Positions 13,491-46,597 of a stretch of 46,597 bases of DNA are shown piece after piece; positions within the stretch are counted from its first letter, which is position 1; every line of letters begins with the position of its first letter. Source of the DNA: Spongospora subterranea f. sp. subterranea (lineage: Eukaryota); assembly GCA_049724395.1 (NCBI GenBank), contig JAUGWO010000133.1:62001-108597 (forward strand). Reading direction: 5' to 3'. A model generated the notes under the pieces. The model did no database searches and was not told the origin of the DNA. It saw only the letters and a program-made list of their open reading frames with translations. The position numbers and the translations under genes are program-made.

Positions 13491-13711
13491 TTGCGGTGAT
13501 CTGCTTTGTGATAAGGATTCAACATCGATAACAGAACAGAGGGTATTGGAGAAAGAAAACCTTGAGATTTGTCTGAGAACAAGTGGAAAAACACAACAAC
13601 GGAATAAAAAAATAAACACATGCCGCCGAAGTTGAATTTACAGCATGTTTCGGTCTGTATTCGAGGTCCGTGTCCAAAACAGTAAATACCGTCGAAGCAA
13701 AACAATTTACG

Positions 13712-13785
13712 TGTCCCCGAGGGGATTCGAACCCCCGACTTCCGGCTCATAAGACCAGCACTCTAACCGACTGAGTTACGAGGAC
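13712..13785 (-). tRNA. tRNA-Ile(UAU), intronless
   Basis: GTCCTCGTAACTCAGTCGGTTAGAGTGCTGGTCTTATGAGCCGGAAGTCGGGGGTTCGAATCCCCTCGGGGACA folds to a cloverleaf; anticodon loop CTTATGA. Confidence 0.95.
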
Positions 13786-13897: not shown

Positions 13898-14171
13898 AAC
13901 TGAAATGTATCCCGAATCTTTTTGAGACGACATAAATACCGGTGCTAAAGGCCGGGTGGGCAATTTCATGAAATCGAATCAGAAAGTTCATGTTTAATCG
14001 TTTGCTCAGCGAGACTTGACGCTCAATCCTGACACGTGCGTTGATCAAATCATTAACAAAGGACCAGAAGTTAGCTTGGTGTGTAGCATTCCTCATATGG
14101 AAAGGGTCGTGCTAGAGTGATGGATTGCGCCATTGAGTTGGTTTCAAAACGGTACCAAGATATTGCAACTA
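13898..14171 (+). repeat. Copy A of a ~275-bp dispersed direct repeat
   Basis: Colinear with 16495-16770, sharing blocks such as TTTAATCGTTTGCTCAGCGAGACTTGAC, GTGTAGCATTCCTCATATGG and TTTCAAAACGGTACCAAGATATTGCAACTA. Confidence 0.92.
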
Positions 14172-14946
14172 CATTTCATTCTGAATTGCTCATGCACATT
14201 CGATTTTGAAAAGTACCTGGCCTTATTCAGAAAAAAATCCTTTTTTAACTAGCCTTAAGAACTAACGTGGTACGTTTTGAAATATTTAGAGCCCCTGTTG
14301 TGTGTATCAGACCGCGAAGGACAGTTCACAAACTATTTTGTTCTGAATATTGTATGTCGACCACTTTTCACATTCAGAAGCACATGAAGCAATGTATTCT
14401 TAAGAATTTTTAAGGCATGTGCATGATTATCGTCAAAAAAGACGAGACCCAAGAAGAAATTATTCTTATCGGGGATGTGATCCCCGATAAGATTCATTCG
14501 TTAATCATCCTCTTCATCAAGGTTTACCTTTCAGCCTCTCGATAAAATTAATATTACATGATGACTGATAAAGACTTGTTCATGAAACTTTTTCCGATGT
14601 TTTTTCTTTGAAATTCGTAGGGGCTCGTCGGACCAAGTTGTTCACCGCATCGAGAATGTGAAAGGGATCATAATGAAAACAAATAGGAGTGACATCAGGC
14701 CAATGATTACACCGTTCTTGAATCACTTTGCTCGCATTTACCTTCGTCATCATCAGCTTCGAGAAAATAATTTGCCCCAAAACAGGGATATCTTACCGCT
14801 TTCATCTCGTCAAGATTAGTTATTGCATTCGAAAATCCCGTATTTACCATCGCCGATGTCAATCGCTGCAAAACGTCAATGATCCAAGCATTGATTTTTT
14901 GACGAATGTAAAACGGGACGTTCAATGTTCTCTACAGGGAGGTTTA

Positions 14947-16010: not shown

Positions 16011-16083
16011 TGCCAACATCGCGGATCGAACGCGAGACCTTACGATCTTCAGTCGTACGCTCTCCCAACTGAGCTATGGCGGC
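16011..16083 (-). tRNA. tRNA-Phe(GAA), copy 1
   Basis: GCCGCCATAGCTCAGTTGGGAGAGCGTACGACTGAAGATCGTAAGGTCTCGCGTTCGATCCGCGATGTTGGCA; cloverleaf, A/B boxes, downstream T-run. Confidence 0.95.
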
Positions 16084-16309
16084 CTTTTTGCGACTACACG
16101 CTTCTAGTCACAGTAAAACTGATTCGCCACTCCTCTTCCACCCTAACATCGTGTACCTGTTGGTGAGATCAAAGCTATGGGGAGCAGAAGAAGAGCCTCC
16201 AACAAAACGAACAGGACACCGAGACTAACAACTCGCCAAACCAACAACGACAACAAAACTCGGAACACCTCCTACCGCAGGAAGTCGACCTGTCGAAACA
16301 CGCCAACGG

Positions 16310-16425
16310 CCTTACAATCAGAGTTCACAGAAACAAATTGGGAAGAGTTCAAACGAAAGACCGAGATACAATATTGGGTTATCGGATAGAAACATACCTG
16401 ACGTACACACCCAATCAGCTCAATC
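16310..16425 (+). mobile_element. Copia gag N-terminal relic upstream of tRNA-Phe copy 1
   Basis: QSEFTETNWEEFKRKTEIQ / GYRIETYLTYTP aligns by eye with IPEFDGKNWEIFRRKLETQSIRMGIETFLEFLP of the gag at 23580. Confidence 0.7.
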
Positions 16426-16494: not shown

Positions 16495-16770
16495 AACTGA
16501 ATTTTATCCAGAACCTTGTGAGACGACATAAGAACCGGTGTTGAAGGCCGGTTGGGCAATTTTACGACGTCGAAAATCAAGAAGTTCCTGTTTAATCGTT
16601 TGCTCAGCGAGACTTGACTCTCAATCCTGTGACACATGCGTTGATCAAATCATCAACAAAAAACCAGAAGTTAGCTTGGCGTGTAGCATTCCTCATATGG
16701 AGAGGATCGCGCTAGATTGATAGATTGCGCCATGAGTAGGTTTCAAAACGGTACCAAGATATTGCAACTA
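16495..16770 (+). repeat. Copy B of the ~275-bp direct repeat, ending 72 bp before the 7TM-RGS start
   Basis: Colinear with 13898-14171. Confidence 0.92.
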
Positions 16771-16842
16771 AATAATCGAGATTCCATAGGGGGGATTGAT
16801 CCGCTATAGCATGAAAAAGTGACCTTGCCCAGCAGTAGCGCC

Positions 16843-18635
16843 ATGAACACTGTAGACGCCAAGGTCACATTATTAACTTTATGGTGGTGTTGGGGCGCCG
16901 TTCAGCTCATCTACCATATTACTGTGTTTTTCCTGTTTTACCAGCGGCGCCATTTGTCTCCAATTAGATTTTTGAATCCAAACTATATGCTGATTGCCAT
17001 AATGTTTGCGTCCTTGTTCTCTCTGTCGATTACCGCCAACTATGTCATTCCAAATGTTCAGGCGTTTTATGCTGTCGTCGTTCCCCAGGCATGTATGTCG
17101 GCAAGCTGCGATATGTTCCTCATTATTGGCATTAGCCTTTTCCTAGCTTTTAACCGTACTCGGGGGCAACTGAAGTTCGCTCGGGAGTGCAATGAACCAG
17201 CGGAGCAAAATCGGCTGATGTTTTCTATCAAGTTGTCCAAGATTTTACTCAACTGGAGGGCCCAATTAGCCTACGTCATCATGAGCACGCTCTGCCAGAT
17301 CGCATTTCAGTTGAACTACGCGTTGGGTCATAAAGATGTGCTATTTAGACCCGTTGCCGAATTAGAAATCGGCAACGCCAACGTGGCAGAGGTTGAGGGA
17401 ATAGCTGGCAAAAAAACGGTCATCTCCTTTGCAATTTTTCTCTTATTGGCTTTACGATTGCGGATTGTTGTCGATGTTCACGGGATCAAACGCGCCTTGA
17501 GAAGAACGGTCATGGTGGGAGCATTCGATTTCATTATGTATTTCCTGGGCAGCGTGATAATGAGTCAAGTCAACTCTGAAGAGCAGAAATCCATTATGAG
17601 TATGATCACATTCCTTATGCATACAGTTGTGGGGAATCTCATAATTACATCGTAAGCGCGGACAATGACATTGTTGAGGATCGAGTGATTTCTACTTCGC
17701 CGAATCCCAGGTCGTTTACATGAAAAACGCATTTGAATCCAATCAATCTACTGTTCGACGGTTTATTTTACCGCTTTCTTCATCTGAAGACGTTGCTGAT
17801 CGTTGTTGGCTTGTTGGGAATTTAGGAACATCACGGTTCCGTTATGGCAATCCTATAGGACACAAGCGGCCAATTCAGCGCTTTCACCCAGGGGATCACA
17901 AATGGGCGTCCTTGAAGCGTTTCTGAAGACGCAAACAGGCTTCGAATCATTCAAGTATACAACTTTTCAACGACTCATTTTTTGTCCCTACTGTCAAATT
18001 AACAATCAGTTTCCCCTATTGCCATGCAATTTACGCCGTCATTTCAGACTACGTTTATTTGTACTAGTTTGCTGTTGTATTGCGGCCAAATCAACCATGA
18101 CAAATGAAGGTTTAACCTGTGCATGTATGATACATCAACGTATTGGTAAATTAATATCATGTCAATGTCTCACAGAACTATGCTGGAACGCGAATTCGCC
18201 GTCGAGAACATTCTGTTCTGGGACGAATGCGAGAAGTTTCGAATGGATTCCTCTGTTTTATTCATGGAAAGAGATAACCGAGAAGTCAAGGACTCGATGT
18301 CGGGTGCCGATCTATTCCTAGCGGGTCGCGCTAAAACAATATTCGACAGATATTTGGCCACAAATTCTTTATTAGAAGTGAACCTACCAAGTGAAACCTT
18401 GGAATCATATCGATCTTTATTTGAGGAAGATTATGAGAGCTCACCGCGGATCAACAAGGATCTGTTCGTAGAAGCCAGCAAAATGATCTTGGCGCTGATG
18501 GAGGCCAATTTCTTATCTAGATTCTGTGATATGGAGACCGTCGTCTGGAACAAGTTTGTGGAGGAACGGCGGGAAAACGTCGTCTTAGAACTCTATTTAA
18601 ACAAGTCTGACAAAATCCCATCTCAAGATAAATAA
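16843..18635 (+). CDS. 7TM-RGS protein (multi-TM domain fused to a C-terminal regulator of G-protein signalling domain), 3 exons
   Basis: Exons 16843-17651, 17826-17954 and 18176-18635 join in frame at GT-AG introns. About seven hydrophobic segments precede RGS motifs LEAFLKTQTGFESFK, LEREFAVENILFWDECEKF, AKTIFDRYL..SLLEVNL and LFVEASKMILALMEANFLSRF. Confidence 0.9.
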
Positions 18636-20999: not shown

Positions 21000-21072
21000 T
21001 GCCAACATCGCGGATCGAACGCGAGACCTTACGATCTTCAGTCGTACGCTCTCCCAACTGAGCTATGGCGGC
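21000..21072 (-). tRNA. tRNA-Phe(GAA), copy 2
   Basis: Identical to copy 1; T5 terminator downstream on the minus strand. Confidence 0.95.
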
Positions 21073-21160: not shown

Positions 21161-21790
21161 ATACCGCAATTCCCCGGATCGAACTGGGATGAGTTTGAAA
21201 GGAAACTCAAAGATCAATTCACCATCATGGGAAATTGAGTCCTACTTAACGGACCTACCAAACCCCACATCGCGACATGAACTGAGAAATGACAAACCAG
21301 ATATGTATGCGACTCCCACAACCTCAGTACAGACAAGTATGACAATGTGAATCAACATGCGCTATCTGGAGCCGTCTAGGTCTCTAACACGACCCGGCGC
21401 GTACAATATCAGTAGTATCGGAGAACTGGCACTTTGCACGAAAGCACTAAATGGACTACTGGAATCTTACCAACAGATCAAGGCAGCAGCCAGGGCATCG
21501 AAAGTCAACACGATCCTCAACCTCACGAATCCCTTGATGTCAGCCGAAAGAGATGCCAAGTTGAAAACGACCATCATGACTCCGAGTTTCGTCAACGCGA
21601 ACTCAGAAAATGAGATACCGGAATCCACAAAACCAAGAAGACAGGGCAAATACTGTTTAAAGTGCAAAAATGGAAAACCAATCCAACAAAGAATGTGGCA
21701 TACTTCACCCGGAACAGAACCGGAAAACAAATACGATGGCGAACAGAACATCTTGATCTGTTGGTAAGATTCCGGTAGTCGAAGGCAAGG
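21161..21790 (+). mobile_element. Copia gag(-protease) relic upstream of tRNA-Phe copy 2
   Basis: IPQFPGSNWDEFERKLKDQFTIMG/IESYL..ELRNDK and IGELALCTKALNGLLESYQQIKAAARASKVNTILNLTNPLMSAER match the 23580 gag; a degenerate CxxC knuckle and a W*DSGS protease-like motif follow. Confidence 0.85.
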
Positions 21791-23134: not shown

Positions 23135-23207
23135 TGCCAACATCGCGGATCGAACGCGAGACCTTACGATCTTCAGTCGTACGCTCTCCCAACTGAGCTA
23201 TGGCGGC
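23135..23207 (-). tRNA. tRNA-Phe(GAA), copy 3
   Basis: Identical to copies 1 and 2; T5 terminator downstream. Confidence 0.95.
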
Positions 23208-23218
23208 TATCATCGTTA

Positions 23219-23340
23219 TATCAGACTATGCGCTAACATATGAAGATTATCATTACTTAACAGAGAGAGTACACTCTAATGACTCACCGAAGGAACTTGA
23301 TAAAGTTTAGTTCGCTATCAACCTTCTTGCGCATCTGTAA
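23219..23340 (+). repeat. 5' LTR (122 bp)
   Basis: TATCAGA...GCATCTGTAA; matches 24569-24674 apart from a 16-bp indel and a few substitutions. Confidence 0.9.
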
Positions 23341-23358
23341 GATTAAGAGTCCCAGCTC
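23341..23358 (+). promoter_or_regulatory. Primer binding site complementary to the D-stem/anticodon arm of tRNA-Lys(CUU)
   Basis: GATTAAGAGTCCCAGCTC abuts the 5' LTR; its reverse complement is GAGC-TGGGA-CTCTTAA-TC (anticodon CTT in a 7-nt loop). Confidence 0.8.
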
Positions 23359-23579
23359 TCGAAGCTCAGGGTCAAGTGAACCATGTCCGACGATGAAAGG
23401 ACGGCAAGACGCGTCCGTCGGGCAGAAACCAACGACGCTCAACAAGAGCATGAACACACAGATCAACCAGCATTTGCCCAAGGAGAGCAAGGCCGAGTAA
23501 GATCTAGCGGAACAAGGGACACATAGAAAATGTTCATCTTCTGCAGACAGAAGTTGATCTTCAGCAGTACGCAACTGGT

Positions 23580-24160
23580 TTGAATCTAATTCCCGAATTT
23601 GATGGAAAAAATTGGGAAATTTTCAGAAGGAAACTGGAAACACAGTCTATCCGCATGGGCATCGAAACTTTCCTCGAATTTCTACCAGGCACATCAACGG
23701 CCGAGATAAGAAACGACCGAATCGCTTACGCAGAAGTTACTATGAGACATTCTCAACTTGCATACAAGCAAATTGCATCATGTCGCTATACCAAGGACGT
23801 ATGGGAAAAATTGTGTGAAATCTATGACGAGAAGAAAGATGCTCAAGCTTCTACAAAATTCGTAAAGTTCATCGAGGACAAGAAAAATTTCACCGAGACG
23901 GTGAAGATCTACCTAGACCGCTTGATTGAGACGTATCATGACCTCATCACGATAGGCATCAACATGGGCGAAATAGCCCTATGTACGAAGGCCCTGCACG
24001 GCCTCTCACAAGTTTATGAACAAGCCAAAGCGGCAGCTCGACCTTCAGAGGTCAAGACGATCGCGAAACTGACGAATCAATTGCTCGCGACAGAACGCGA
24101 AAAGATTGGCAACAAGCCAAAATCCAGCGACGACGCGCAGACACCGGAGCTTAAAGCATT
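23580..24160 (+). pseudogene. gag: Copia Gag (truncated)
   Basis: IPEFDGKNWEIFRRKLE, TKDVWEKLCEIY, ETVKIYLDRL and KALHGLSQVYE are retrotran_gag_2-type motifs. Confidence 0.85.
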
Positions 24161-24163
24161 ACA

Positions 24164-24586
24164 TTGGGTGAAAATCCGATTAAAAAATCCAAAAAGCAAG
24201 GATGCGTCGCATTATCGACGACGGAAGCTGAATATATAGCAGCATGTTCCGCAACTAAAGAAGTTATTTGGCTACAAGACCTTTTGATTGAGCTTAGGCT
24301 CCTGAAACAAGTGCCAAAAACAATGTTATATCAGGACAACCAAGGAGCGTTATTTATTGAAAAGAACGACTGCTCCAGTCAAAGATCGAAGCATAAAGAT
24401 ATCCAACACCATTACGTTCGAGACATGATTAAAGAACAAAGGATCGACGTAAAGTACGTCCCGACGAACAATATGGTTGCCGATATACTTACGAAGCCTT
24501 TAAATGAATTAATCTTCAAAAAGCTCAGGGTTTTCCTGACGAATGATGGTTCAGTTAGCCAGGGAGCGTATCAGATCATGCGCTAA
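24164..24586 (+). pseudogene. pol: Copia RNase H C-terminal part
   Basis: SKKQGCVALSTTEAEYIA, YQDNQGA, RSKHKDIQHHYVRD and VPTNNMVADILTKPL. Confidence 0.93.
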
Positions 24587-24674
24587 CATATGAACAGAGA
24601 GAGTACACTCTAATGACTCTCCCAAGGAACTTATCAAAGTTTAATTCGCTATCAACCTTCTTGCGCATCTGTAA
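24569..24674 (+). repeat. 3' LTR (106 bp)
   Basis: Follows the purine tract directly; matches the 5' LTR. Confidence 0.9.
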
Positions 24675-25353: not shown

Positions 25354-25840
25354 TCAAAGTTTGTTATCGTTGACAATACACAGGTCGTAATTGATTGACA
25401 TGAATGATAACGAGCCGACCTCATCCTCTCTCAGAAACAGTTTACAGGCAATCAGGGTCATTGTCCATATCATCAAATCCCACACTGTGTTCTGGCTTAT
25501 CAGATGCGTCCGCATTGAAATCAGTTCCAATGGAGACAATGGTGTATCGCCCTTTGCCACATAATCAGGCCGGTCAATCTTGGTCCGCTTCACAGCATTT
25601 GTCAGCAACTCTGACTCCTTGGGATGACCCTTTCGCCACAGCAAGCCCAGACCCACTTTATTGTTGATCAGGGCGGTATAGATCGGGGATGTGTATTGCG
25701 ACAGACGTCTTTCTATCAACACGGTGATTGTGATGGAGTATATAATATCCTTGTGCTGGTGACCCAGATCAAATCAACACTACGAGCTATCATTTCTCGA
25801 GATCGACGCGATAGACCTGCCAAATTCTGCCATTGTATCC
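25354..25840 (-). mobile_element. Crypton-like tyrosine recombinase relic (N-terminal half)
   Basis: LLWRKGHP..DYVAKGDTPLSPLEL..WTMTLIACKLFLREDE contains the first catalytic Arg box; ~118 bp are nearly identical to 44259-44376. Confidence 0.7.
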
Positions 25841-26587: not shown

Positions 26588-26943
26588 GACCAGTTTGGTG
26601 AATGTTCTTCCATGATTGTAGTCGTTCAGTTCATCTTCATATAGATATTCGGCTTGTTAAGTGCTTGTTTAGGAATTGGACTCGAGCCCGGGTTCGAAAA
26701 TTGACGAGTCCCATATCAGTATCGTTTCTCAACAATTGAGCCAAGAGGGCGAGAACCCCCATTGCCTTATCGATCTAAATCGAATTCCTATTGATACGGA
26801 AATTTTGCCTTCAAAAGACTCTCTTGAGAATCTCGTGCCCGCTACCAGAAACGACAACCAGTTTGGTGAAAGTTCTCCGATCAATGTAATCGTTCAGTTT
26901 CATCTTCATATTGACATTCGGCTTGTTAAGTGCTTTTTTAGGA
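26588..26943 (+). repeat. Local direct repeat, ~87 bp (26588-26674 and 26856-26943)
   Basis: ACCAGTTTGGTGAA..TCGTTCAGTT(T)CATCTTCATAT..ATTCGGCTTGTTAAGTGCTT occurs twice. Confidence 0.85.
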
Positions 26944-27002
26944 GCCACAATCCTCGAAGTGGTCTTGATGGTTTGGTGAGTCATTGGAGGGTCAACCTTT
27001 AT

Positions 27003-27533
27003 CTAATATTGGGATGAGCGAAAATCATAATGACAGATATCAGATTCCTCTCTGCCTGTTCCAGGACAGTAATAGCGACTCAACTTGTGGAAGAATACTG
27101 ATTCTCCCCATCTCCGAACAAATTCCTGAACACTTCCAGCGCAATGACGATGTAAACAATTGACCAAAGGACGGTTTGGGTTTCTGATGTTGGTTAGGAC
27201 CGGGATTCGAGGGCATCTCATTGATACGTCTTCGTAATCACGAACTTATCAGTAATGATGGTCAACAGTCAATTGGAAAGCGTAGAGGACCAAACTTTCG
27301 ATTGCCGCATCGAAAATTACGATTAATTTCAAATAACCAGCCTCTTGACGTTCATTGATAATTTCTTGCCAGTAGGCGATTGCCGATAATCGTGATAACC
27401 AATACCTGATTATGGCGTTCCAGGATACATTTTCGCAACAAACTCGCAAAATGGTAAATTTCCGTAATAACAAGTATTTGTTGGAACTGAGAGTGATCTC
27501 TCCGCTCTTAAACTGGGACCTGAATGAGGTCAA
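27003..27533 (-). pseudogene. Frameshifted paralogue of the Cys/His-module gene
   Basis: DKFVITKT / MRCPRIP..RPLVNCLHRHC..; the upstream part is broken. Confidence 0.65.
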
Positions 27534-27773: not shown

Positions 27774-28746
27774 GTGATCTTAATTTCGAATTTTGTTTTG
27801 AAACTGGTCTCTGGCAGAATATCGGACTGCAGTATTAGTCGTAAGGTGAAAGATTGTCTCAAGCGCTTCTGTTTCCCCGTCCTTCAATGTCTTGTGAAAT
27901 GTTGTGGCAAAGACATTGACCAGTTCCAGACACGTTGGGGAACGCGTTTCAAACACGGTCATTTTGGAGTGGAATGCTGCCCCGGTCGTGGATCAAATCA
28001 TAACACCTGCGGTTACCAGATGACGAAAATCGTCAGAAACCCTGAAAACAGGTTTTTTTTCGCCAGCTCTAGAAAAACTGATGAACATTTGTCCTTTCAG
28101 AGACAACGACTCCGGTTTATTGAATCTCAAAGCTCTTGTTGTTGCTGTTTCATTGTCAAAAACCGCAGAAGAAAAACTCAAACTGTGTTGTGAATTCTAC
28201 GAGAAATACCGATCAAGTGGCCCCATGGCTCAAAAGGTTCTTCGATCATATTATCACCATTATTCGAAAGCCATCTGGGGGTGCTTTGTTCATCACTGTG
28301 GCCAAGATATAAACGAATGGATTCGAAAATGGGGCCCTCAATTCGCACATTGGGAATTCGGCACTCGGAAATGTCATGGTCTGAAGTCCCATCAATGCGG
28401 ATCGATCGACCGACCATTTGAAATTCCTGCAAGACGTAATCTTCGCTATAAATCAACTCAAGACCTCCTCTCAGCGCTTTCCAAAATTCGTGAAGAGTAC
28501 GATAAGTTCGTGATTACGAAGACAGCATCAATGAGATGCCCTCATCCGGGTTTAACCACTTTCATCAGAAAGTGCCGTCCTCTTAACAATTGTTTACATC
28601 GTCATTGCGCTGGAAGTGTTCAGGAATTTGTTCGGAGATGGGGAGAATCAGTATTCTTCCACAAGTTGAGTCGCTATTACTGTCCTGGAACAGGCAGAGA
28701 GGAATCTGATATCTGTCATTATGATTTTCGCTCATCCCAATATTAG
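27774..28746 (+). CDS. Protein with three tandem Cys/His modules (one frameshift or intron near 28080)
   Basis: Modules PVLQCLVKCCGKDIDQFQTRWGTRFKHGHFGVECCPG, AIWGCFVHHCGQDINEWIRKWGPQFAHWEFGTRKCHG and PLNNCLHRHCAGSVQEFVRRWGESVFFHKLSRYYCPG. Confidence 0.7.
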
Positions 28747-30320
28747 ATAAAGGTTGACCCTCCAATGACTCACCAAACCATCAAGACCACTTCGAGGATT
28801 GTGGCTCACCAAAAACTAACACCACCATTTCTTCTAATAATGATAAAATCCCTCGATTCTCAATTTTTGACCAAAAACAAACTCATTTTGACGCTTTCAG
28901 AGCGGTTAACACTTTCTGTTGCATCTGTTGACTTCTCTGTTTTCAGAGGTTGTGTCAGTTGATCACGCAGGTCCAGGTTTGGACTTGGTTATCTGGAAGG
29001 ATTTCGGAATTCACATTTCCAGTAGCGCCCATTCGACGCGATCTCCACCGCGTAAGAAGAAGGCGACCAACTCAGCGATCAGCCGAAGTGACGAAACCAG
29101 GTCGGGCGGATGAATATTTACAAAGCGAACGAGATAGATTGTGCATAAGCAATTCCTTGTTGTTTATATGTGAATTTAATTGTAAATCACTCAGCACTGA
29201 ATGGGTCATACTGGAAAAGATATGATCATGTAATGTCGTATGGGAACAAATCTCGACTCTGTTTCGCAACCAAAGTCTTCCAATATTCGACATTCGAATC
29301 AGATATAGGCGTCACTGGACTGGTCACGAGAGGAATAGACTCAATGTGTCTGATCTGGTCGGTTTCGCGATAAGTGTTCACTAGTAATTGACACAATTCT
29401 CAATGAGCGATACCCAAACAATGCAGTGATCGGCGGCGCATTTATTGAGAACAAAATCAAACTCCATAGGTGGATCCTGTATCAATTCGTCACGTCTCGT
29501 CATTCGTCAATGCTTTGAAGACTCGAGAATATTCTACTTTTTGTTGATCGCTCTTCGAAGAATACCCAATTTTGCTACCACAGCAGAGTATCAACAAACA
29601 TCACACAAACTACCCAAAAAACAATCATACCCGTGCTTCAACAAACCCACCAATTTTTCCACAAATTTCGCCAAGTCGTCCAGGCGGTTCGGTGCTGGCA
29701 CAGACATGTGCCTTTCAAAACTTTGCTTGATCAGTTTTGCCATTTCCTCGTCCCTATATCAGCAAATTAAGATAAAACATAGATTGTTCATGAGGATCCT
29801 TTACCTAAATTTATTATAGTCACACAATTTTTCGTGGGTATTGGGAATCGAAAATTGTTGAAAATAACGAATATTGATAAGCGCATTCAATAACAATCCG
29901 CTTTCAAGATCTGCCGACAGCAAATGATCACTGTGAAAATCGAAACATGAATATTGGGATGTAATGGACAGGACGATTATTCGAGTTGACACCACCATGA
30001 TTTCTTTGCCATAACTGACATCGACATCGACCTAAACAGCTTGCGATTATTCCCCAATGTTTCACTACGAAGATCAAGGTAGTCAAAGAATTCAGTCAGG
30101 AAATCGTTCCTGTTCAACGATGATTAGCGGACTATGGCGATAATTAGAGTGGACCGGGGAATACCAATCCGATTCCGTGAATGGTTTGTGTGTTTGGTCA
30201 CTCAGGGTCCTGATAATAATCAAATAAACTGAGTTCACATATAGTGCTCCAGTTCCGCCATTACCATTGCAAACACGATAATTTGATTGCTGAAAGCTGA
30301 GCAAGAGCAGAGTTCCCATC

Positions 30321-34009: not shown

Positions 34010-35100
34010 TCACATTTGCAGTTTATTGAATAGCTGAGCCATCTCATCATCCACGGTGATCATCTTCGCATTCGCGACCGATTCCACGGAACAAGGTAGT
34101 GCAATTGGGAGCTGTCCTGCCCTTTGTAACTTCTCTTTCCCTATGTGCTGGATTTTGAATCTGTTGCCGCCATCATCGTCCATGCAGGACTGCAGCACCG
34201 TTTGTAGTGTCAAAAAATTCGAATTGATTTTTACAGGGTCCAGTTCGTCAAACTACTTCACCGACAATACCACTGCCGTGATCAACTCATCCAAGTTCGC
34301 CGTTGTTTTTTGTTGCTGCAGTGACTGGATTGCACTAAAAAACCCAAGATTCAAAATGTTCATATCCGGACTATTTGGGGGTTGACAGAACAAATTGATC
34401 TTGTATCCACCCTCTTTGGCAGCAAGAAAAGGATCATGATGTGGCCGAATACAAGGTCTTGCATTATCTTGTTGGATTATGATTGGTATGTCATTGGAAA
34501 ACTTGGATTTAATTGCGGGCAAAACCTTCCTTATCAACATCTCCGCGTAAATCTGCTGGTCAACAGTTACCACCGAAGTGACAAGTGCTCCCTTCACCCT
34601 GTTTTTACTGGACCGTTTTGCAGGTTCCGAAGTTGCGAACGGCCACATTCCGATTTTGCCGTCAAAAATACATTTGAATTTCTCGTCAAAACGTGGCCCG
34701 CTATTGCGGCAAGAAACATCACTTTTCTAATAAACCTTTTGCTCTTACATGTTCGATAAGGCTCTTCTTCGTCGTTTGCCAGGTAAAATGTGTTATTTAC
34801 TTGTGTGAGATTGAACCACTTTTCGTCAATGTGCACTGTGTCAAACATCGGTTTGACTTTGGGCGACATCGGCATAGAATCCTGGTCTATCATTGGTAAA
34901 CTAAACTTAAGGCGAAGAATTTTGTTGCTTTCCGTAAGTACTGGCTTGATAGAGTTTGAATGGCGACGAATGTTGCCATTTTTTAGATTGAGATGTAAAG
35001 TTGTAGTGGAAATGGCTGTATCCGCTGATAGACTTCGCAAGTCCCTCTTGACTTCAAAGGAACTGCACTTACAGTTGAAGAGATGTCGGCATACTTGCTT
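34010..35100 (-). mobile_element. Plant-mariner-like (DD39D-type) transposase pseudogene
   Basis: IKPVLTESNKILRLKF, VHIDEKWF, KSKRFIRKVMFLAA, IIIQQDNARP, QPPNSPDMNILNLGFF (third Asp is Asn) and GGNRFKIQH; several frameshifts. Confidence 0.92.
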
Positions 35101-35639
35101 TTACGTCCGCATTGCTTTTTGAAAGAATTAACATCCGCTGAAACCGCTCCAGAGATTATTGAAGATGTTGCACGCTTCTAAATACGGCTTGCTGTCTTCC
35201 AATAAACGCCAACTTCTTGTCCAACTTTGGTGAAAGCACCTTTCTTTGGTCTTCCGTTGTCATCCAGCATCGTCAGGAGCCGCTCATAAATTCCTCTGCG
35301 TTGGTCGGCACCAAGCTCTTTCGATTTGACCGTTTCGCGTCAATGGCTGCTGCTCTTGGTTTTGTAATGATTACCGAATCGAATGTTAGGAGTGTGCACG
35401 AAACACATGACCTCATGAGGACCCTGTCGTGCACCAAAGGGATCGTGTACCGCAGAGCAACGACGGTTCGTATTCGTAGGGCGTCGCTCAGTTTTATTGA
35501 ACGTGGGTTATGAAGAAATTATCAGGAAACCTACACATGGCGACGAGACATCTCAGAGACCATTTACGATGTACGCTAACTTCTTGACAGTAATCGACAG
35601 ATTTGTTAACTTAAATAAAAAAAATGAGCTTAATCGGGT

Positions 35640-36860
35640 AAAAAGAAGCGTACTGGCCAACTATTTCCGAACGGAGGTAGTAAATTACGAAACTCACGAC
35701 AGACTTATTAGGCATTGTTGTCGCATTTGTACAATGGAGGCATCTCTTGAAAGGCGCTGCACGTCGGATACAAGTCGTTAGCGACCACAAAAACCTCAAA
35801 TATTTCGCAACCTCAAAAAAAACTGAACCGTAGACAGCCAGGTGGTCGATGATTCTATCCGAATATGACCATGAAATCCTCCCTCGAGCGGGATCGTTGT
35901 CTGGAAAACCGATGTCCATCCCGTAGACCGGAATTCGAGATCCCCAACGACCCTGTTTGGGCTCAACAGAAAACTGTACTTATTCGAACGGAACAACTCA
36001 CTTCACAGCCAGTTCGAGTCTGTATTACAAGCACGACCGAATCAACCGCGTCAGAAGAGCATTTTCTTCAAGTAATTCGAGAGTAACAAAGCGTTGATTC
36101 GCTCTGTTCAAGAATGATGGTAAAACCCCAAGGACCGTTCAGCATCAAAGAAGGGTTGGTATTTCGGCAGATCAACTGGTGGTTCCAGACTGGGCGGGTC
36201 AGCTGCAAATTTTGTCACAACGTCAATATCACCTCCTGTCATGACACCTTAAACGCAGGAAAACAGCAGCACGGACTCAACGCGAATTTTTTGACCGACG
36301 ATAAGGACAAGCGTCAAAAAGTATGTCGAATCCTGTGATCATGTCAATGTACGAAACCGTCGCGACATAAGCCATATGGGCTCCTTCAGCCACTTCCTAT
36401 TCCGACCAGATTATGGGGATCCATGAGTTTGAACTTCTTTGTCAAATTTTCCAAATCCAAAGGCTACGACTCAGTCATCGTCGATCGATGTTCTAAAATC
36501 GCCCAATTCGTTTGTTGGAACGAGACTGATACGCTTAAGGACCAGCCAAATTGTTTTATTCTAAACGTATTCAAACTACTTGGACTATCGGAGGAGGAGA
36601 TAGTGTCAGATCCTGGCCCCCAAAGGGTCTCTAAATTCTGGGGTCATTCGTTGAGGAATCTGAACATTCAAGCGGAAGCTGTCATCTTAGCGACACCCAC
36701 ATACAAATGGGCAAATTGAACGTGTTAATCAGTTTTGTGCTTACAGCCAGGACGACTGGTCCGATATGGTATCGCTCGCCGAATTCTGCTACAACAACGC
36801 AGAACATGGAAGTACCTGCCTCCACAGTTTTCCGCGAACTACGATTTCTACCCAATATTC
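35640..36860 (+). mobile_element. Ty3/gypsy pol relic (RNase H and integrase)
   Basis: NYETHD, DHKNLKYFATSKKLNRRQ, CDHVN/KPSRHKPYGLLQPLPIP, VIVDRCSK, IVSDPGPQ, HPHTNGQIERVNQ and AEFCYNN; heavily frameshifted. Confidence 0.88.
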
Positions 36861-37171
36861 GCAACCCTCCACGGCACGAAGGCCTCCGTTTGTTCAACCG
36901 CTGGAGAAAGGGCACTCCACCTGCAGAAAATACGCACGTTGATCGTTATCGCGCATATGTCGCACATCCGGTTTGATGTCGCACCATAGTTCATGAGGTG
37001 TCCTCCATTGAATCGATTTCGTCGGTAATCTGTTCTGTGTATAAACGGCATAGCGCACGGCGAATATCCAGAATTCTGGTGGGAGACCGGCATCAATAAG
37101 GATCGTTGTTCATTATCGTCAGGTTTCGTCGTTCTGCTGTTCCCTTTTGTTGAGAGCTGTACGGTATCGTA

Positions 37172-37990
37172 CATCAGGACTATTGGTCACCATAATTGGA
37201 ATTTACGTTGATGATTTACTGATAACCGGAAATGACAAAGTGAAGATCGCAGAATCGATCAGATTTTACATTCAACGTACCGAATGAAAGATCTCGGAGA
37301 AGTAAAAACGTTTTTAGGAATCGAGATCCTACACTAAGAAGCCAACTCAATCATAACCCAACATGCCTACATCCTACAACTCCTAAAACGCTTCAAACAA
37401 GTAAATTGCAAACCAGAACCCACTTCAGCGACAGGTTGCGAAATTACAGACGAAAACATCGTGCCGAACACCTACCCAATTAGAGAAACTTTAGGAGGAC
37501 TCATGTTCATTGCGAACGCGATCGACCAGATATAGTCTACATCGTTAACAAACTGAGCCGATCCGTGTCGAAACCAACAACACAACTCTGGAGAAACGTC
37601 CAACGGATATTTAAGTACCTGAAGGGAACGACAAATTATGGACTAATGTTCGGCAGGCCTGATGAGACAATCGCCTGTTATGCCGACAGCAGCTTCGCTG
37701 ATGACGTTAATGATCGCAAGTCCACAGCTGGATGGTTATTGATGTTCGGACAAGATATGGTGATCAACTAAGCAGAAATCTGTGGCGCTATCAACCACTG
37801 AATCAGAATATATGGCCTGTTGTGATGCGGCAAAGCAAGCTATTCAAATGAAGAACTTATATTAAGAAACGTTCGAATCGAAGAGGCGCGTCAGATAGAG
37901 ACGATCCTAACGTACTGTTGATCCTTATTCCTAACGTACGATTTTTCATAACTTCTAAATAAACTCTTCTGTCTTTCCTCCTAATCTATA
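37172..37990 (+). mobile_element. Copia RT-RNase H relic with putative purine tract and 3' LTR (~37890-37990), ending just upstream of tRNA-Arg
   Basis: IGIYVDDLLITG, MKDLGEVKTFLGIEI, RPDIVYIVNKLSR, IFKYLKGT, YADSSFA..DRKSTAG and KQKSVALSTTESEYMA; then GAAGAGGCGCG-TCAGATA, resembling AGGGAGCG-TATCAGA of the 23219 element. LTR limits are tentative. Confidence 0.88.
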
Positions 37991-38019
37991 CGCTACCGGC
38001 AAATAAAAACAGGAATATG

Positions 38020-38640: not shown

Positions 38641-39412
38641 ACGGTCTTGCTTTTGGAAAATTGGTCCTGATATTATTAAATAGTTAAGTTGATTTTGACC
38701 TGTTACCTTCATTGCTTCATAACAGGCATACAGCATGCTTCCATGATCAATTGCAGAAATTTGTCATCATTGTCATTGTCCCACAATGGCATGAGTGAGG
38801 TCAATCCGTTGAGCTGAGCAAATAAAGTGCACTCCAACCTTTCACTAGAGATTTTGAGTCGGCCTTTACTTCGGAAACAATCGGAACAATGCCATGTGAG
38901 TTAAAGATTTTGCTCGCCAGCAATGTCATATCAATAAGTTTCAGCACTTTACAGAAATATAAGCATTATTGTGGATTTCACTAAAAATGGACAGTCTGAG
39001 GAGTATATAAAACCCGGTCCGCAGTTTCCTTAAACATGGCTCACCACGGATTTTTTAATCAAGAACTACCATTAGAGCTGGTGGTTGGCCCGTTCCAGAA
39101 TCGAGACGTCTTTGGAGACGAATTTTAATCTTGTTTCATTAAAACACTCGTGGGAAATGTGTTATTTATTACATCACGAATGATAATAGCGCACAACACG
39201 TCATAATCAAGTCATAACATGCATTGAATACTATTCAATATCTGCAGCAGCAATGTTGTCGTCTAAATCTCCTTTGAAAACGGTATCTTTGCGGTTGTAG
39301 TTTTGGGATGGCCTCGGTCATTTGACAATGAATGACGTGGGAAGCATGAGTCAATCACAGTTGACGTTATCTGTTTATTCTACTCTGCATGTCATAAGTC
39401 ATTCATCGCCAA

Positions 39413-40273
39413 ATGGACGAGACCGTCCCCGACAATTTGACCGCATCCTTGACCGTTTTCAAGGGAGATGATACTATCAGCAGACGGCACCATCATGCTG
39501 CTGCAGAAACTGATAGTATTCAATGGACTCTGTCACTAGGATTTTGCGTTCTGCACGCCATCATTGTTCGCCACTTACGAATACATCTTCCCAGGTCGAG
39601 TGTTCCTGATGAAATCAAACTGAAAATCAAACCTGCTGTCCAAGCACCCCAAAGCAGGTTCATCGACCTTTCTGAAGACAATTTCGACGTGACTGTTCGA
39701 CGCGTATATGCACAATCAGTGATTCGTCAGCGATTGTCGCCCGAAAACGTCCTCATTCCACTGGTCGTTTTTATTTCCGAACAGGCGTCTGTAAGAAATT
39801 CGGGATCAACAAACCCTTCTGGTTTGCGAAGGGCGACCATAGGCAGGGTCCGTCTGGCAACAGAAGAAATCGTTGCTGCCATCCAGGCAAACCCTCCCAG
39901 TCTTCCTGATCGAGCCGTAATTGGCGAGATAGCGACGAATATTTGGTCGAGGACCAGGGCGCGAGCTGTCAATCCTGAACCAGTCGAGCAATTGCCGGCC
40001 AGCAACACATTCCGGCAGGCGATGCGATTGGACTACCTCAGAAGTTCACTTGAAAATCAGGATGCGGACGAATTCGCCCAAATCGTGTTGCGGGTCAATA
40101 GGACTGAACTTGTCACTGTGGAGGTGAATATCGCAAGCCTTCGATCCGCCCTGGGCTTGCCACCATATCCGTTGTTCGGAAACGATATATTTCATTCCGA
40201 CGAACCCGTTCCGGCAGTTGTCGGACAAGACCTTAACGACGTCGATCATGTCCTATCGGACGACGAAAATTAA
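39413..40273 (+). CDS. Intronless 286-aa hypothetical protein, probable passenger/accessory ORF of the adjacent transposon
   Basis: Uninterrupted ATG-TAA ORF in an otherwise decayed region; its stop overlaps the transposase stop; C-terminal VNIASLRSALGLPPY. Confidence 0.75.
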   Translation: MDETVPDNLTASLTVFKGDDTISRRHHHAAAETDSIQWTLSLGFCVLHAIIVRHLRIHLPRSSVPDEIKLKIKPAVQAPQSRFIDLSEDNFDVTVRRVYAQSVIRQRLSPENVLIPLVVFISEQASVRNSGSTNPSGLRRATIGRVRLATEEIVAAIQANPPSLPDRAVIGEIATNIWSRTRARAVNPEPVEQLPASNTFRQAMRLDYLRSSLENQDADEFAQIVLRVNRTELVTVEVNIASLRSALGLPPYPLFGNDIFHSDEPVPAVVGQDLNDVDHVLSDDEN

Positions 40274-41274
40274 AGATAGACCCCAAACATTTCTTTATTT
40301 AGCTCAGTGTGACCGTACCCACAGGAATTGTAAAAATTATGACCAATATGTCTTAGATTCTTCATACACATTGGCATAGCCACTTTTAGAACAGCCTCAG
40401 GGCAAACCCTGAACGTCAGATCAGCATGTTTCTTGAGCCACTGCTTTAAAAGTGCAAAACCTTGCTCGATAGGGTTCAACTGTGGCGAATAAGGAGGCAG
40501 GAACATGAGTTTCGCGCCTGATCTGTGTATGACCTGTTCCAATTCCCGATACATATGGATCTGTGCATTATCTAAGATAACAATGCTCCTTGGAAGTGGC
40601 CACGGATTCAACTTCGGAGCGACGATTTCCAGGAAAGCATCATGGAACTTCTGGCGATTGAACGTCCCTTCGGTGCATTTCCAAGAGAAAAATCCCTTTG
40701 CATCAAACGCGGCGAAAACAGAGACTCTGTTCCCTCGTTGAAACGGTTGGCGTACTAGAGCTGGCGTATTGATCCTAGACCATCCATGACGACGCAAACA
40801 GTCGCGACCGTCTTTGCTCGTTTCGTCCAGGAAAACTAGTTGCTCAGGATATGAATAGATTCGCGAAAGCTTCTGATAAAATTCTCTGAGCTGTTCAGGA
40901 ACGCTCTCGCGAGCGCGCTTTTCCAGGACTTTTCTGGACACTTTAAGATCATGACGAAGGGCCCGGCAAATTGTCGCAGACGATATATTCGTCAGTTCGG
41001 GAAATCTGAGAGCCAGCTCCTCTTGGAGTTCTTCAATATAGAAACAGGGACTGTTTACGATGAAGGTGTGCACATAGTCGTAAACCTCGGTGGGCCATCT
41101 GGCAGACCTTTGTCGAACAGCGTCATTAACGACATTACCAGTCCTTTCAAACAGGGCAATCCAACGTTTGATGCTAGTTTTCCCAACACCAAGAAGAACG
41201 GAGACGTTCTCTATTGATGTAGAATAAACGTAATGCAGAACAATGCATCGCCAACGTAGATCTCGACTCCACAT
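40270..41274 (-). CDS. Intact IS630/Tc1-superfamily DD34E transposase
   Basis: N-terminal HTH (SRDLRWR..VSVLLGVGKTSIKRW), ISSATICRAL, VFLDETSKD, IVILDNAQIH and FLPPYSPQLNPIEQGF; 34 residues between the second Asp and the Glu. Confidence 0.93.
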   Translation of the reverse strand: MWSRDLRWRCIVLHYVYSTSIENVSVLLGVGKTSIKRWIALFERTGNVVNDAVRQRSARWPTEVYDYVHTFIVNSPCFYIEELQEELALRFPELTNISSATICRALRHDLKVSRKVLEKRARESVPEQLREFYQKLSRIYSYPEQLVFLDETSKDGRDCLRRHGWSRINTPALVRQPFQRGNRVSVFAAFDAKGFFSWKCTEGTFNRQKFHDAFLEIVAPKLNPWPLPRSIVILDNAQIHMYRELEQVIHRSGAKLMFLPPYSPQLNPIEQGFALLKQWLKKHADLTFRVCPEAVLKVAMPMCMKNLRHIGHNFYNSCGYGHTELNKEMFGVYL

Positions 41275-42949
41275 CCGTAATACCAATCTGATCAACCGCC
41301 CCGCAGTATTTCTACCGGGTAGGACCAAAGGATTAGTGCAGGTTTTGGGCTAGTTGAACTAGTCCAATCAGAGGGGAAATAGTAAAACATTGCAGGCCTG
41401 CACGTAATAGGCCGCTCTTTATTCAGAGAAGCAATGTTTTAACCAATTTTGGCAGTCAAACTGTCAAACTAAAAACCACCTGGGGTCAAACTAAAACCTT
41501 GCTCGGAGTTTGGTGACCCCCTTCGGACTTTTTTAAAACCACGCTCATTTAGCACTGGGAGCCCAAAATATATGAAACCCACAATAATGAAGCCTAAGGT
41601 GTGCCCATTGGAATAATTCATGACTGCCCCACACAAACGTTTGAATCTTGTCACCTTGTCCGGTAAAAACAACGATGGTTCAGCGGACTGAATTCTTGTT
41701 GAGGCATAGCTTAAAATCGCATTTCGTGCCCGATAATGGTCTCAAGTGAGTCCCTGCAACCAAGAAAAAGCCACTGGAACCCATCGCGAAGGCAAACCGC
41801 AATACACTGCGATTGGAATAAGATAGCCTCGATTAAAACATCGGAAACAGCGCCTTGGCCATCACGACCTGTAAATGAATCCACATCGACGAATCTAACC
41901 ATTATGTTGCAAGCTGAGAATCAGCAATTATCTTGAAAGATAAATTCAACTGTACCTTTCCAACATAAAACTCGAAGCAACAGTTACGTGCATTCCAGTG
42001 ATATGCTGGATATGACGGCAGTTTTGCCAAAAGTCAGATGGAACTCCAGGATGATCGCTGAATGAGTCACCAAACCCTAGATTATTTATATTTAAGCACA
42101 CTTGCAGACCAATCAAGGTACCGAGGTTAGTCTAACACCAAGGTCTTGCAATACCTGACGTCGGAGATACGCTACTCTTGAGAGGTTCCCGTAAAATCCA
42201 ATGATTGGCCTGCAGGTGACAAGCGTGACAGCTTTCGCCCTGGGACTAATACAGATTTTGTTATTAGTGAGCATCTTTTTTCAGTACAAGTTAGGCTTCA
42301 ACACATGTGGCACGACATCCAATGAATTCTATTTTACTCTGATGCTTTGCTGAATGTAGCTTCAGATCTAGTCAACCAAATTGCTGCAAATGATCAGGGA
42401 TACGAGGTCGAAGGAGTTGTCGACGCAGCTGAACATGACGAAGAAACTTGGGAGGCCTTGACACGTGGGAGCCTGTCTAGAATTTACTCCATGAGTGTCC
42501 AGTACACTTCCACAGTTTATTGAAGCGGTAAAAGATTCCTTCAGTGATGAATCTTGCTCTCGTTTTGAACGACGGGAATGTAGTGCCGCAGCGCTAGCTC
42601 GGATTGTAGATGGCAAGACTGAGGCATCCCTGCTAATAAAGTACCTTGGCCGAAAAACACTACAGGCATGCAATAAGTGACAAATATTTCGGAATGTGAA
42701 ATTGTCTTCGAAACGGTATTGGACTCCTTGTTTCAACCCAACTGTCGCATACGTTTTCTCGTTCTCCTTGTTAGTGTTGGGCTGGTTCGGTGTTATTTGG
42801 AAGGCGTTTATTAGCCAATAGAGCGTACATGTAATTTAAGAAACTTTTGTCAACTGTCATAGTTAAATAATCACAGGCTACGGTAGTATTGCGTGGTTTC
42901 AGTAATTTTACCTTTGGCGCAGTTCTTCTGAAATGTTTCAAGGGAACAT

Positions 42950-43594: not shown

Positions 43595-44376
43595 AGCATT
43601 GTCCCGATATTTGCTTTTTGTTCAAGGTTGGTCAGGCTGTCGATACATTCGAAAAGCTGTTCTCGGGTAGAGAGCGTTGTCCGGTACTCAATTGTAGTCC
43701 GAACAATGTCGGATATCGACAATACCTCAGATAACGAGGCAGTGACACCGCAAACAGTCATCATGAAGTGTGTGGCCAAACGATCCAACCGCATGACACG
43801 ACTAGAGTTGGAGGCATTGATAGATCGTCTCATCTGAACATCGCGGCAGTAGATGGGGCGCCATTTCGACACGACCTGTTTGACGTTCCGTTGATTCCGC
43901 TTTGCAACACTTAACAGAAACTTGGCATCTTGCCGATACTTCATTGCACTGTTTGACGATTTGTGTCGTGCGCTAAGCATCGTATCATTTTCCTCACCTC
44001 CTCCCCAGATCGCCAACAAATACGCCGTCTTACGATTTCAATGGCTCCCAAAGGGACCGTCGCGTTTGAACAGCTTCAGACAGACTGATTTGAATCGCTA
44101 TGGCGCTCTCATGTGTTGAGTTAGATTCTCTTTCGAGCAAAATAAATATCCTTCGGCAATGCCGGTCAGATGAACGAGACACAGCAAGTATCGTATTGGA
44201 CACAACTCGGGGACGTCGTTATCGCCATAGCATGAGAGTTACCAAGACGTGATGGCTTCCCATGGAGACAGTGGTGTATCGCCCTTTGGCACATAATCAG
44301 GCCGGTCAATCTTGGTCTGCTTCACAGCATTTGTCAGCAACTCTGACTCCTTGGGATTACCCTTTCGCCACAGCAA
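43177..44376 (-). mobile_element. Crypton-like tyrosine recombinase relic (internally deleted) with C-terminal Cys/His module
   Basis: VPELCPIRYLL..EGYLF, GSH*NRKTAYLLAIWGG (HxxR box), SARHKSSNSAMKY (His..catalytic Tyr) and C-terminal PIINCLSNDF..DFLIRYP..HSTF..VCTG. Confidence 0.8.
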
Positions 44377-44940
44377 GGGAGTGCCACGATGAAAGACACA
44401 TCCTGCCAACTGGCCCTTTTGGTCTTCAGCAATGCAGCGATCACATGCCTCGAGATGCTGGCCACGTTGCTGTCGAGGAGAGTGAATGCCGCTGACCGCC
44501 GACAGTAGCTGTGCAACGATCGCGGGATCGTTCCAGCCACCTGATCATTCACTTCGTGCTGATACATTAGCACAGATACTTCCCAATGACAATTTTTTTT
44601 TAATCCGCTTCATTATGCGACTGACTTTTCTCAGGTGAACGTCAAATTCAACCGCAATCTTCGTTCCACAACATTACGGTAATTGACTTGAGAGTTGTTC
44701 TACAGTAGTTTGGCAATGGTGTCAATGAAGAAATCTCTGTTCCTCAATGCGTTACTACTGTCACTACAGTTGTGTGTTTCCATTCGTGTTATTTAACTTA
44801 CCACTACCGGGTGCAGCCATGCATTCGAGTTCAGTGCAATCTCCAGATCAGATTTCAGTATCATAAAGTTGTGGAATTAATTTTCACCCAAATCTATATA
44901 GTGCGCGAATTGTGGTTATTCGTTTATTTGCTACGAATTA

Positions 44941-46597
44941 TTATTTATAACTTGACCCCGAGGCAGGTGCTGGTCCTGCTTTAGGAGACAGCGCGTAGTT
45001 GGGTCCTGGTGCAGGAGCAGACTTTGGCGCCGGGGCAGGTGGAGATTTTACCAGCCGGAGCGTAATTTCCTGCTGCAGGAATGGGCATTGGTGCCGGAGC
45101 GTAATTTCCTTTTTCAGGAATAGACTTCGGCGCTGGTGCAGGAGGAGATTTACCAGCCGGAGCGTAATTTCCTGCTGCAGGAATGGGCATTGGTGCCGGA
45201 GCGTAATTTCCTTTTTCAGGAATAGACTTCGGCGCCGGTGCAGGAGGAGATTTACCAGCCGGAGCGTAATTTCCTGCTGCAGGAATGGGCATTGGTGCCG
45301 GAGCGTAATTTCCTTTTTCAGGAATAGACTTCGGCGCCGGTGCAGGAGGAGATTTACCAGCCGGAGCGTAATTTCCTTTTTCAGGAGTCGACTTTGGCGC
45401 TGGTGCAGGAGTGGCCTTTGGAGCCGGAGCCGGGGTCTCTTTTGGAGGAGTTTTGGTAGATTTTTGTGGCGGTGCAGCGGTCGTTGGTGTTGCCTTCGGC
45501 GCAGCAGTTGTTGTCGGCTTCGGTGTTGCTTTCGGAGCATCAGGTTTCTCCTTTGGCGCAGTGCTGGGCCTTGCACAAATTTCAATGCAGCGATCGAGAC
45601 CCTGCTGTGCCTCTTTAAACTCTGGTGTCTGGTGTTGGCCGGCCGCCTTCATGTCATTACAGGCCTTTTCTAGTTTTGGCATTTTACCACGACATTCGGA
45701 TTCCGTTTCCTTTCCAGTAACTTTTGGACGTCAGGTTTCGGAGCAACAGGGGTTGGCTTGGGAGCAACCGTTGTAGGGAGTCGACGTCGGGGTGGGAGCG
45801 GTGGTCGGTTTTCGAATAGTCAGATGGGGGTTTCGATGGAGCAGTAGTTGGCTTCGGTGTCTTCATAGTAGTTGGCTTTGGAGTTTCCGTAGTAGTTGGC
45901 TTTGGAGTTTCCATAGTAGTTGGCTTTGGAGTTTCCATAGTCGTTGGCTTTGGTGTCTCCTGAGTCGGCTTCGGTGTTTTTTCATAAGGCTTTGGTGTCT
46001 CAATAGTCGTTGGCTTTGGTGTCTCCATAGTCGTTGGCTTTGGTGTCTCCTGACTCGGCTTCGGTGTCTTTCCATAAGGCTTTGGTGTCTCCATAGTCGT
46101 TGGCTTTGGTGTCTCCTGAGTCGGCTTTGGTGCTTTCCATAAGGCTTTGGTGTCTCCATAGTCGTTGGCTTTGGTGTCTCCATAGTCGTTGGCTTCGGTG
46201 TCTCCTGAGTCGGCTTCGGTGTCTCCTGAGTCGCTTCGGTGTCTCCTGAGTCGGCTTCGGTGTCTGGTCCATAAGGCTTTGGTGTCTCCATAGTTGGTCT
46301 TTTCTGAGTCGTTGGCTTTGGTGTCTCCTGAGTCGGCTTCGGTGTCTTTCCATACGGCTTTGGTGTCTCCATAGTCGTTGGCTTTGGTGTCTCCTGAGTC
46401 GGCTTCGGTGTCTTTCCATAAGGCTTTGGTGTCTCCATAGTCGTTGGCTTTGGTGTCTCCTGAGTCGGCTTCGGTGTCTTTCCATAGCTAGTCCTGAGTC
46501 GGCTTCGGTGTCTTTCCATAAGGCTTTGGTGTCTCCATAGTAGTTGGCTTTGGAGTTTCCATAGTCGTTGGCTTTGGTGTTTCCTGAGTCGCTCGGT
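44941..46597 (-). CDS. Pro/Thr/Lys-rich tandem-repeat (mucin/extensin-like) protein, 5' end beyond the window; several 1-nt indels
   Basis: [22 protein letters not shown] repeats, a 4-Cys helical domain ([20 protein letters not shown]), three 102-bp [34 protein letters not shown] repeats, and a stop at 44941. Confidence 0.8.

Follow-up and report, generated by a model that had tools for sequence, protein, structure and literature searches.

In Table 1 of PMC5911963, all of the LTR elements whose insertions lie no more than about 30 nt upstream of a tRNA are Ty3/gypsy elements, and the copia elements in the same table (Ty1, Ty2 and Ty4) have a targeting window of about 1 kb. The passages on targeting in PMC7175516, PMC5006619 and PMC6101501 agree that tight placement belongs to Ty3/gypsy and the 1 kb window to copia. 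As described there (PMC5911963, PMC7175516, PMC6101501), Ty3 of yeast, DGLT-A of Dictyostelium, Tj1 and Tca8/beta insert no more than about 20 nt upstream of the 5' end of the mature tRNA, as the family reported here appears to do, and DGLT-A is given as inserting in either orientation, as our family also appears to do. In these accounts Ty3, DGLT-A, Tj1 and Tca8/beta are all Ty3/gypsy elements, whereas our element is classed as copia from its gag family and from the order of domains in its relative L132. It would share the targeting of Pol III genes with the copia elements Ty1, Ty2 and Ty4 of S. cerevisiae. A copia element with start-site-precise tRNA targeting was not found in the literature; this is a weak negative, as the same search missed the FunCo1 paper discussed below.

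Priming from within a tRNA is also well described in copia elements. Drosophila copia and yeast Ty5 are cited in PMC10886601 for anticodon-loop priming. These two and the plant elements Osser, Bryco, Gymco-II and Bianca (PMC6317226) have a primer site that adjoins the LTR, lacks TGG and matches the anticodon arm, as in our element; the primers there are iMet or Ile (Bianca has a half tRNA-Ile site), in contrast with Lys(CUU) here. Ty5, as described, targets heterochromatin, unlike our element. The same non-iMet half-tRNA priming with different tRNAs is reported for Tca elements of Candida albicans, which have internal tRNA-Arg(UCU) sites, some with extended homology to the tRNA as in our element (PMC4139406), and for rust-fungus Copia/Helenus elements, which have anticodon-loop sites for Tyr, Ile, Asp and iMet (PMC10886601); Lys is given in the primer data of the latter paper only as a 3'-end primer. 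Finally, an internal tRNA-Lys site is published for FunCo1, a clade of Copia elements in fungi (Donnart et al. 2017, PMC5445492). That site, ATTAAGAGTCT, is matched by our element at 10 of 11 bases, a likeness by site sequence only. FunCo1 is reported almost only from Pezizomycotina, and the passages on the clade give no cut position, D-arm extension or tRNA-gene targeting (PMC5445492).

The window is the whole stretch of 46,597 nt that was analysed. The element at 23219-24674 is an internally deleted, non-autonomous copy of a Ty1/copia LTR retrotransposon, and it is unable to move by itself. All of its features are on the plus strand. Two direct LTRs flank gag-pol: a 5' LTR of 122 nt (23219-23340), whose boundaries agree with the flanks of sister copies, and a 3' LTR of 106 nt (24569-24674). 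The pair aligns with 98 matches, 8 mismatches and one 16-nt gap. The gag region (23383-24161) is of the copia type (PF14223, E 7.6e-16) and its frame is broken near 23515 in this copy. It is followed by the C-terminal RNase H region of pol (24162-24538), which shares 47.7% identity (E 2.5e-33) with the end of the polyprotein of L132; this region alone gave no Pfam match. A short purine-rich tract (24561-24568) precedes the 3' LTR.

The junction between gag and RNase H (24161/24162) marks an internal deletion, and protease, integrase and RT are absent from the window copy. To examine sister copies we used contigs from six sequencing runs aligned to the element; such contigs drop minority variants. 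Three rhizosphere RNA runs, in which only 5% of the sequence words were present, were left out and say nothing on habitat. Contigs of other copies exit the window sequence at 24161 (runs X1, X2 and X3) and rejoin it there (X1, X2 and X6). The full order of gag, protease, integrase, RT and RNase H is seen in the relative L132, the window copy itself being deleted. A word-indexed protein search found one gag relative, 82% identical, and a HMMER search found 56 at E values up to 0.001. Protein-seeded scans found no relatives of the RNase H tail or of the L132 polyprotein in viral contigs.

The first-pass annotation had placed an 18-mer, GATTAAGAGTCCCAGCTC, at 23341-23358, directly after the 5' LTR and without a TGG start, and the sequence bears this out. 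It had read the reverse complement as D-stem 3' strand, anticodon stem, CUU loop and two bases of the 3' stem strand of tRNA-Lys(CUU). The match to the D stem, anticodon arm and CUU loop stands, but at the junction GAGC/TGGGA that parse passes over nt 26, a position that is filled in human and phage tRNA-Lys(CTT). The site is a 14-nt perfect match, then a one-base bulge (nt 26), then four to five further pairs. The core (23341-23354) is the complement of nt 40 to 27, and its reverse complement consists of a five-base stem strand, the loop CTCTTAA and two 3'-stem bases. GCTC (23355-23358) is the complement of nt 25 to 22, with nt 26 skipped. The site adjoins the LTR, has no TGG and complements the anticodon arm up to the 3' stem strand, in a comparison made with human and phage tRNA-Lys(CTT), which may differ from the host's own tRNA-Lys(CUU).

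The human tRNA-Lys(CTT) 5' fragment holds the 14-nt arm as nt 27-40, with A at nt 26, in the sequence given in PMC5493846, and the same arm is given as a LysCTT primer in PMC6932762. The 14-mer occurs at 120 viral loci, five of them within tRNA genes called by ARAGORN (all Lys(CTT)) and 115 outside tRNA genes; all five phage genes with the arm have one base at the nt 26 position. A relaxed primer pattern was found at nine loci in viral contigs, one inside a tRNA-Lys gene and none with a copia match. Duplex energies against phage tRNA-Lys halves were without a control and hence are not counted as evidence.

The primer site of Drosophila copia has the same nt 27-40 register as that of our element. 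In the narrow sense, the genus Hemivirus has half of the initiator tRNA-Met as its primer; the anticodon read from the window site is CUU.

We considered whether the primer could be another tRNA, such as Arg(UCU), or the match a chance one. Internal tRNA-Arg(UCU) sites are known in Candida (PMC4139406, in its account of the Tca elements). Against this reading, which we regard as highly improbable, the 14-nt match to the tRNA with anticodon CUU is perfect, and distant copia elements carry an identical site. Within the window the 14-nt core has no second match, even when two mismatches are allowed (one found versus 0.28 expected), and over both strands there is a single place with a Lys-CUU loop that two base pairs close. 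A generic anticodon-arm-like pattern is matched by 239 of the 93166 14-mers of the window on both strands. None of the five tRNA genes in the window (one Ile, three Phe and one Arg; ARAGORN and Rfam) is a tRNA-Lys gene, and priming by the window's own Ile, Phe or Arg tRNAs was rejected because the match is 5 nt at most.

The exact 18-mer is present at 13 loci in metagenome contigs. Two of these, L121 and L132, are copia elements in which the site lies upstream of gag, directly after LTR-like sequence. The other 11 loci, which fall into three unrelated contexts, gave no match to either copia protein. L132 is a circularly permuted contig with one LTR-like stretch of 172 nt and an intact gag-protease-integrase-RT-RNase H frame of 1303 aa. 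Its gag is 46.8% identical to that of the window element and its LTR shows no similarity. L121, about 24% identical to L132, covers gag, protease and the first part of integrase and is not matched by the window gag; its primer site comes after a stretch whose last bases are CA, close to the end of the contig. GCTC is identical in both. Additionally, the 18-mer is followed by four variable bases and AGCT in all three elements (23363-23366 in the window) and AGCT is found at that place in none of the 11 other loci. This AGCT complements nt 12 to 9 of the human tRNA fragment, and it could instead serve as the second arm of a local hairpin. On the reverse strand of L132, the last 10 nt of the LTR include an 8-nt complement of the primer site, equal to part of the tRNA-Lys anticodon loop, which can fold over the site.

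Within the family, we checked whether the Lys-type site is kept. All four X1 contigs that cross the site are of the Lys type and none has a TGG or iMet-type site. The dominant X1 contig (depth 495.6, versus 86.6 for the X1 contig on the unique right flank) covers 23313-23420 and has one difference, at 23371, outside the primer site. In a divergent X1/X2 contig, of depth 51.7 and with 14 differences and 13 gap letters over 195 nt, the site is substituted at 23344 and 23351. The two remaining X1 contigs have no listed difference in the site; differences near alignment ends are seemingly unlisted, which overstates constancy within the family. AGCT is altered at one base in one sister contig.

The LTRs of the family are unusual at their termini. 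The TG...CA that is usual, though not universal, in Ty1/copia elements is absent, and TA...AA is found in both window LTRs and at the sister flanks. One X1 contig departs from the window LTR at 23337. The LTR of L132 begins TG and ends GA, and the LTR-like stretch of L121 ends CA. The motif TCAGA, two bases in, is common to all of the related LTR starts. The LTR end gave no matches in metagenome contigs, and comparison of the 3' flank with the left flank found no target-site duplication around the window copy.

Taken together, these comparisons make it very probable that reverse transcription in the family starts from a tRNA-Lys(CUU) 5' fragment whose last base is nt 40. The proposal of half-tRNA-Lys(CUU) priming made in the first-pass annotation is supported at the level of sequence, by the 14/14 match to nt 40 and by the same 18-mer in two distant copia elements and in the main group of family copies. 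What does not hold is the implied surprise at a half-tRNA other than iMet: precedents are published for Arg, Ile, Tyr, Asp and Lys, and priming from a tRNA-Lys half adds one case to an already published type. Mechanistically, the element RNA would pair with nt 40-27 of the tRNA, bulge nt 26, pair with nt 25-22 and probably with nt 12-9. This three-part pairing would open the anticodon arm and the D arm, and a cut after nt 40 would supply the 3'-OH, as in copia and Ty5 with tRNA-iMet. The step in which AGCT may pair with nt 12-9 is less sure, because the same bases can fold as a small hairpin and because of the changed AGCT base in one sister contig.

The hairpin also enters into a different explanation, in which the primer is an intact or differently processed tRNA-Lys, or the motif is partly an internal hairpin (GCTC...AGCT), and no fragment is cut after nt 40. 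In its favour, two AGCT stretches fold on each other in the window element, L121 and L132, and 8 nt of the L132 primer site pair with the final bases of its LTR. However, in each of the three elements the tRNA match stops at nt 40, precisely where the LTR ends, and for extension a free 3'-OH is required at that point; within the window LTR, no complement of the primer site is longer than 5 nt. We consider this explanation improbable. Tf1-like self-priming from the LTR was rejected, as only a 5-nt match is present within the window LTR.

Probable priming from a cleaved tRNA-Lys half is one aspect of this element; its position is the other. A tRNA-Phe(GAA) gene at 23135-23207 on the minus strand (ARAGORN, Rfam) has its 5' end facing the element. 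The gap between the tRNA 5' end and the 5' LTR is 11 nt (23208-23218) and is crossed by no aligned contig. Tblastn of the L132 polyprotein over the whole window gave four copia clusters, all of them upstream of tRNA genes, at 213, 88, 11 and 136 nt (measured to the nearest match or LTR). In addition to the element there are three related remnants on the plus strand: a copia gag remnant at 16297-16386 (E 1.2e-4), 213 nt upstream of a tRNA-Phe gene (16011-16083, minus strand); a second gag remnant at 21161-21746 (E 2e-16), 88 nt upstream of another tRNA-Phe gene (21000-21072, minus strand); and an RT-RNase H remnant at 37186-38009 (E 1.6e-40) upstream of a tRNA-Arg gene (5' end 38020). Four of the five tRNA genes in the window have a copia cluster upstream and the tRNA-Ile gene is free. 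The rough chance of this placement of four clusters is about 3e-7, for random placement and with a threshold set after the fact.

An exact distance from LTR to tRNA is available for one cluster in the window (11 nt), and two of the remnants have no clear LTR. The remnant at the tRNA-Arg gene has a purine tract (37880-37888) followed from 37889 up to the gene by an LTR-like stretch that begins like other related LTRs, and its right end would lie about 10-13 nt from the tRNA. None of the other three remnants aligns with the element at the DNA level, nor do the clusters align with one another, and the tRNA-Phe copies share no upstream flanks. The four clusters are therefore taken as separate insertions, and duplication of one tRNA-plus-element unit was rejected on the same grounds.

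Two further stretches lie before the copia remnant at the tRNA-Arg gene: a decayed gypsy-type RNase H-integrase region (35600-36900), seen by eye in translation, and an inverted copia integrase piece (36951-37170), giving a pile-up of elements at one tRNA gene. Before the first gag remnant, 16143-16180 contains a possible LTR end, GATCAA and AGCT, which could be a deleted form of the primer site. One X2 flank resembles this stretch, suggesting a stacked or nested insertion.

We then looked at the genomic flanks of sister copies. Among the loose ends listed, eight are single-contig genomic flanks at LTR ends, rows mixing several contigs being left out; each flank was read over 30 letters, and likeness to a tRNA was judged by eye from 18-19 tRNA-like letters. 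A tRNA-like start is present in two of these eight flanks, at 12-13 nt and in both orientations. In X3 a tRNA-like 5' end with a complete A box begins 12 nt after the 3' LTR; it resembles tRNA-Asn. In X6 and X7 a tRNA-like 5' end with one A-box mismatch lies 13 nt before the 5' LTR. One of the eight resembles the sequence before the gag remnant at the first tRNA-Phe gene, and five contain nothing recognisable. The 3' flank in X3 starts with TCCAA and, in different runs, an X1/X2 5' flank ends with TCCAA. This shared sequence would fit one insertion with a 5-bp duplication and LTR ends TA...AA. An apparent LTR-to-LTR joint was tried as a solo LTR and rejected, as it looks like an LTR variant.

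The suggestion in the first-pass annotation that the element targets tRNA genes is supported by the 11-nt placement, the four clustered remnants and the flanks of sister copies. We judge it likely that the family integrates tightly, 11-13 nt upstream of tRNA genes. Insertion would occur in either orientation with a 5-bp duplication, and TFIIIB or TFIIIC, as factors of RNA polymerase III, would tether the integrase complex in the way known from Ty3 and DGLT-A. Alternatively, half tRNA-Lys priming could be combined with loose targeting of the Ty1 type, in which insertions fall anywhere in a window of as much as 1 kb before a tRNA gene, or selection in a gene-dense genome could simply have spared the copies that lie near tRNA genes. 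Known tRNA-targeting copia elements do use a window of about 1 kb (Table 1 of PMC5911963), six of the eight single-contig flanks listed have no tRNA start, and the coding matches of the two window remnants that have no clear LTR are 88 and 213 nt from the tRNA. Looser placement or survival nevertheless seems unlikely to us, since the distance from LTR to tRNA, wherever it could be measured, was 11, 12 or 13 nt (three of three). These distances, 11 nt in the window and 12 and 13 nt by eye in the flanks, are a small sample, and they lie within about 20 nt upstream of the mature tRNA in either orientation. Additionally, an insertion has a tRNA on one side only, so that half of the flanks should have none. 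If every copy had one on one side, about four of the eight flanks would be expected to show it, versus the two seen, a number that is low yet compatible with universal targeting.

Neither the window element nor L132 has the Ty3/gypsy domain order. The best PDB match of the L132 polyprotein is a 635-aa integrase, chain 7z0h_W, which we take to be the Ty1 integrase, and L132 matches residues 16-299 only. About 60 residues separate the SH3 and RT Pfam matches in L132. L132 thus appears by its sequence to be without a long Ty1-type targeting tail; the L132 contig has no flanks and its tail says nothing on how the window family aims.

The deleted copia element belongs, we think with reasonable confidence, to a family that does both things: it would prime from a 5' fragment of tRNA-Lys(CUU) and integrate 11-13 nt upstream of tRNA genes. 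On balance we lean slightly towards a wider reading. In it, a copia lineage of a microbial eukaryote from a poorly sampled group would have arrived independently at integration of the Ty3 kind, placed with near base precision at 11-13 nt upstream of tRNA genes; its LTR ends would be non-canonical, it would have no Ty1-type tail, and its three-part primer site would hold a tRNA-Lys half and open the D arm. As a lead, the tight, Ty3-like targeting by a copia family is better than the primer, and it rests on three distances and four clustered remnants. If tight placement holds genome-wide, a copia integrase reaches the same few bases at Pol III start sites as Ty3 and DGLT-A. Safe-harbour targeting would then have arisen independently once more, and there would be a new way to approach the docking of integrase to TFIIIB or TFIIIC. 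The skipping of nt 26, which is conserved, and the additional AGCT offer a concrete, mutable model for the capture of a tRNA half.

Several other features of the window were noted. A 280-nt repeat, 87% identical between its two copies (13898-14174 and 16495-16773), lies 110-410 nt upstream of a tRNA gene in each case (Ile and Phe). A 7TM-like frame followed by an RGS domain (PF00615) is present at 16810-18635; the 7TM frame is near protein clusters mostly from Zoopagomycota (Atlas), a nearness that does not place the host, and no relatives were found for the RGS frame, in a word-indexed protein search, or for one other host frame. A DDE_3 (Tc1/mariner-type) transposase frame lies at 39222-41349 and a second transposase fragment at 34597-35100; the stretch 39222-39525 is palindromic. 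At 44941-46597, open frames contain long tandem repeats (24, 39, 66 and 102 nt) and are likely to encode a mucin-like or wall protein. There is an inverted pair of 320-nt repeats (26935-27250 and 28501-28815; 93% identical) and a dispersed 121-nt repeat (25525-25645 and 44257-44377; 96% identical). Finally, the tRNA-Ile(UAU) gene (13711-13785) and the tRNA-Phe genes, the three of which are identical in sequence, are intronless; their counterparts in yeast carry introns.
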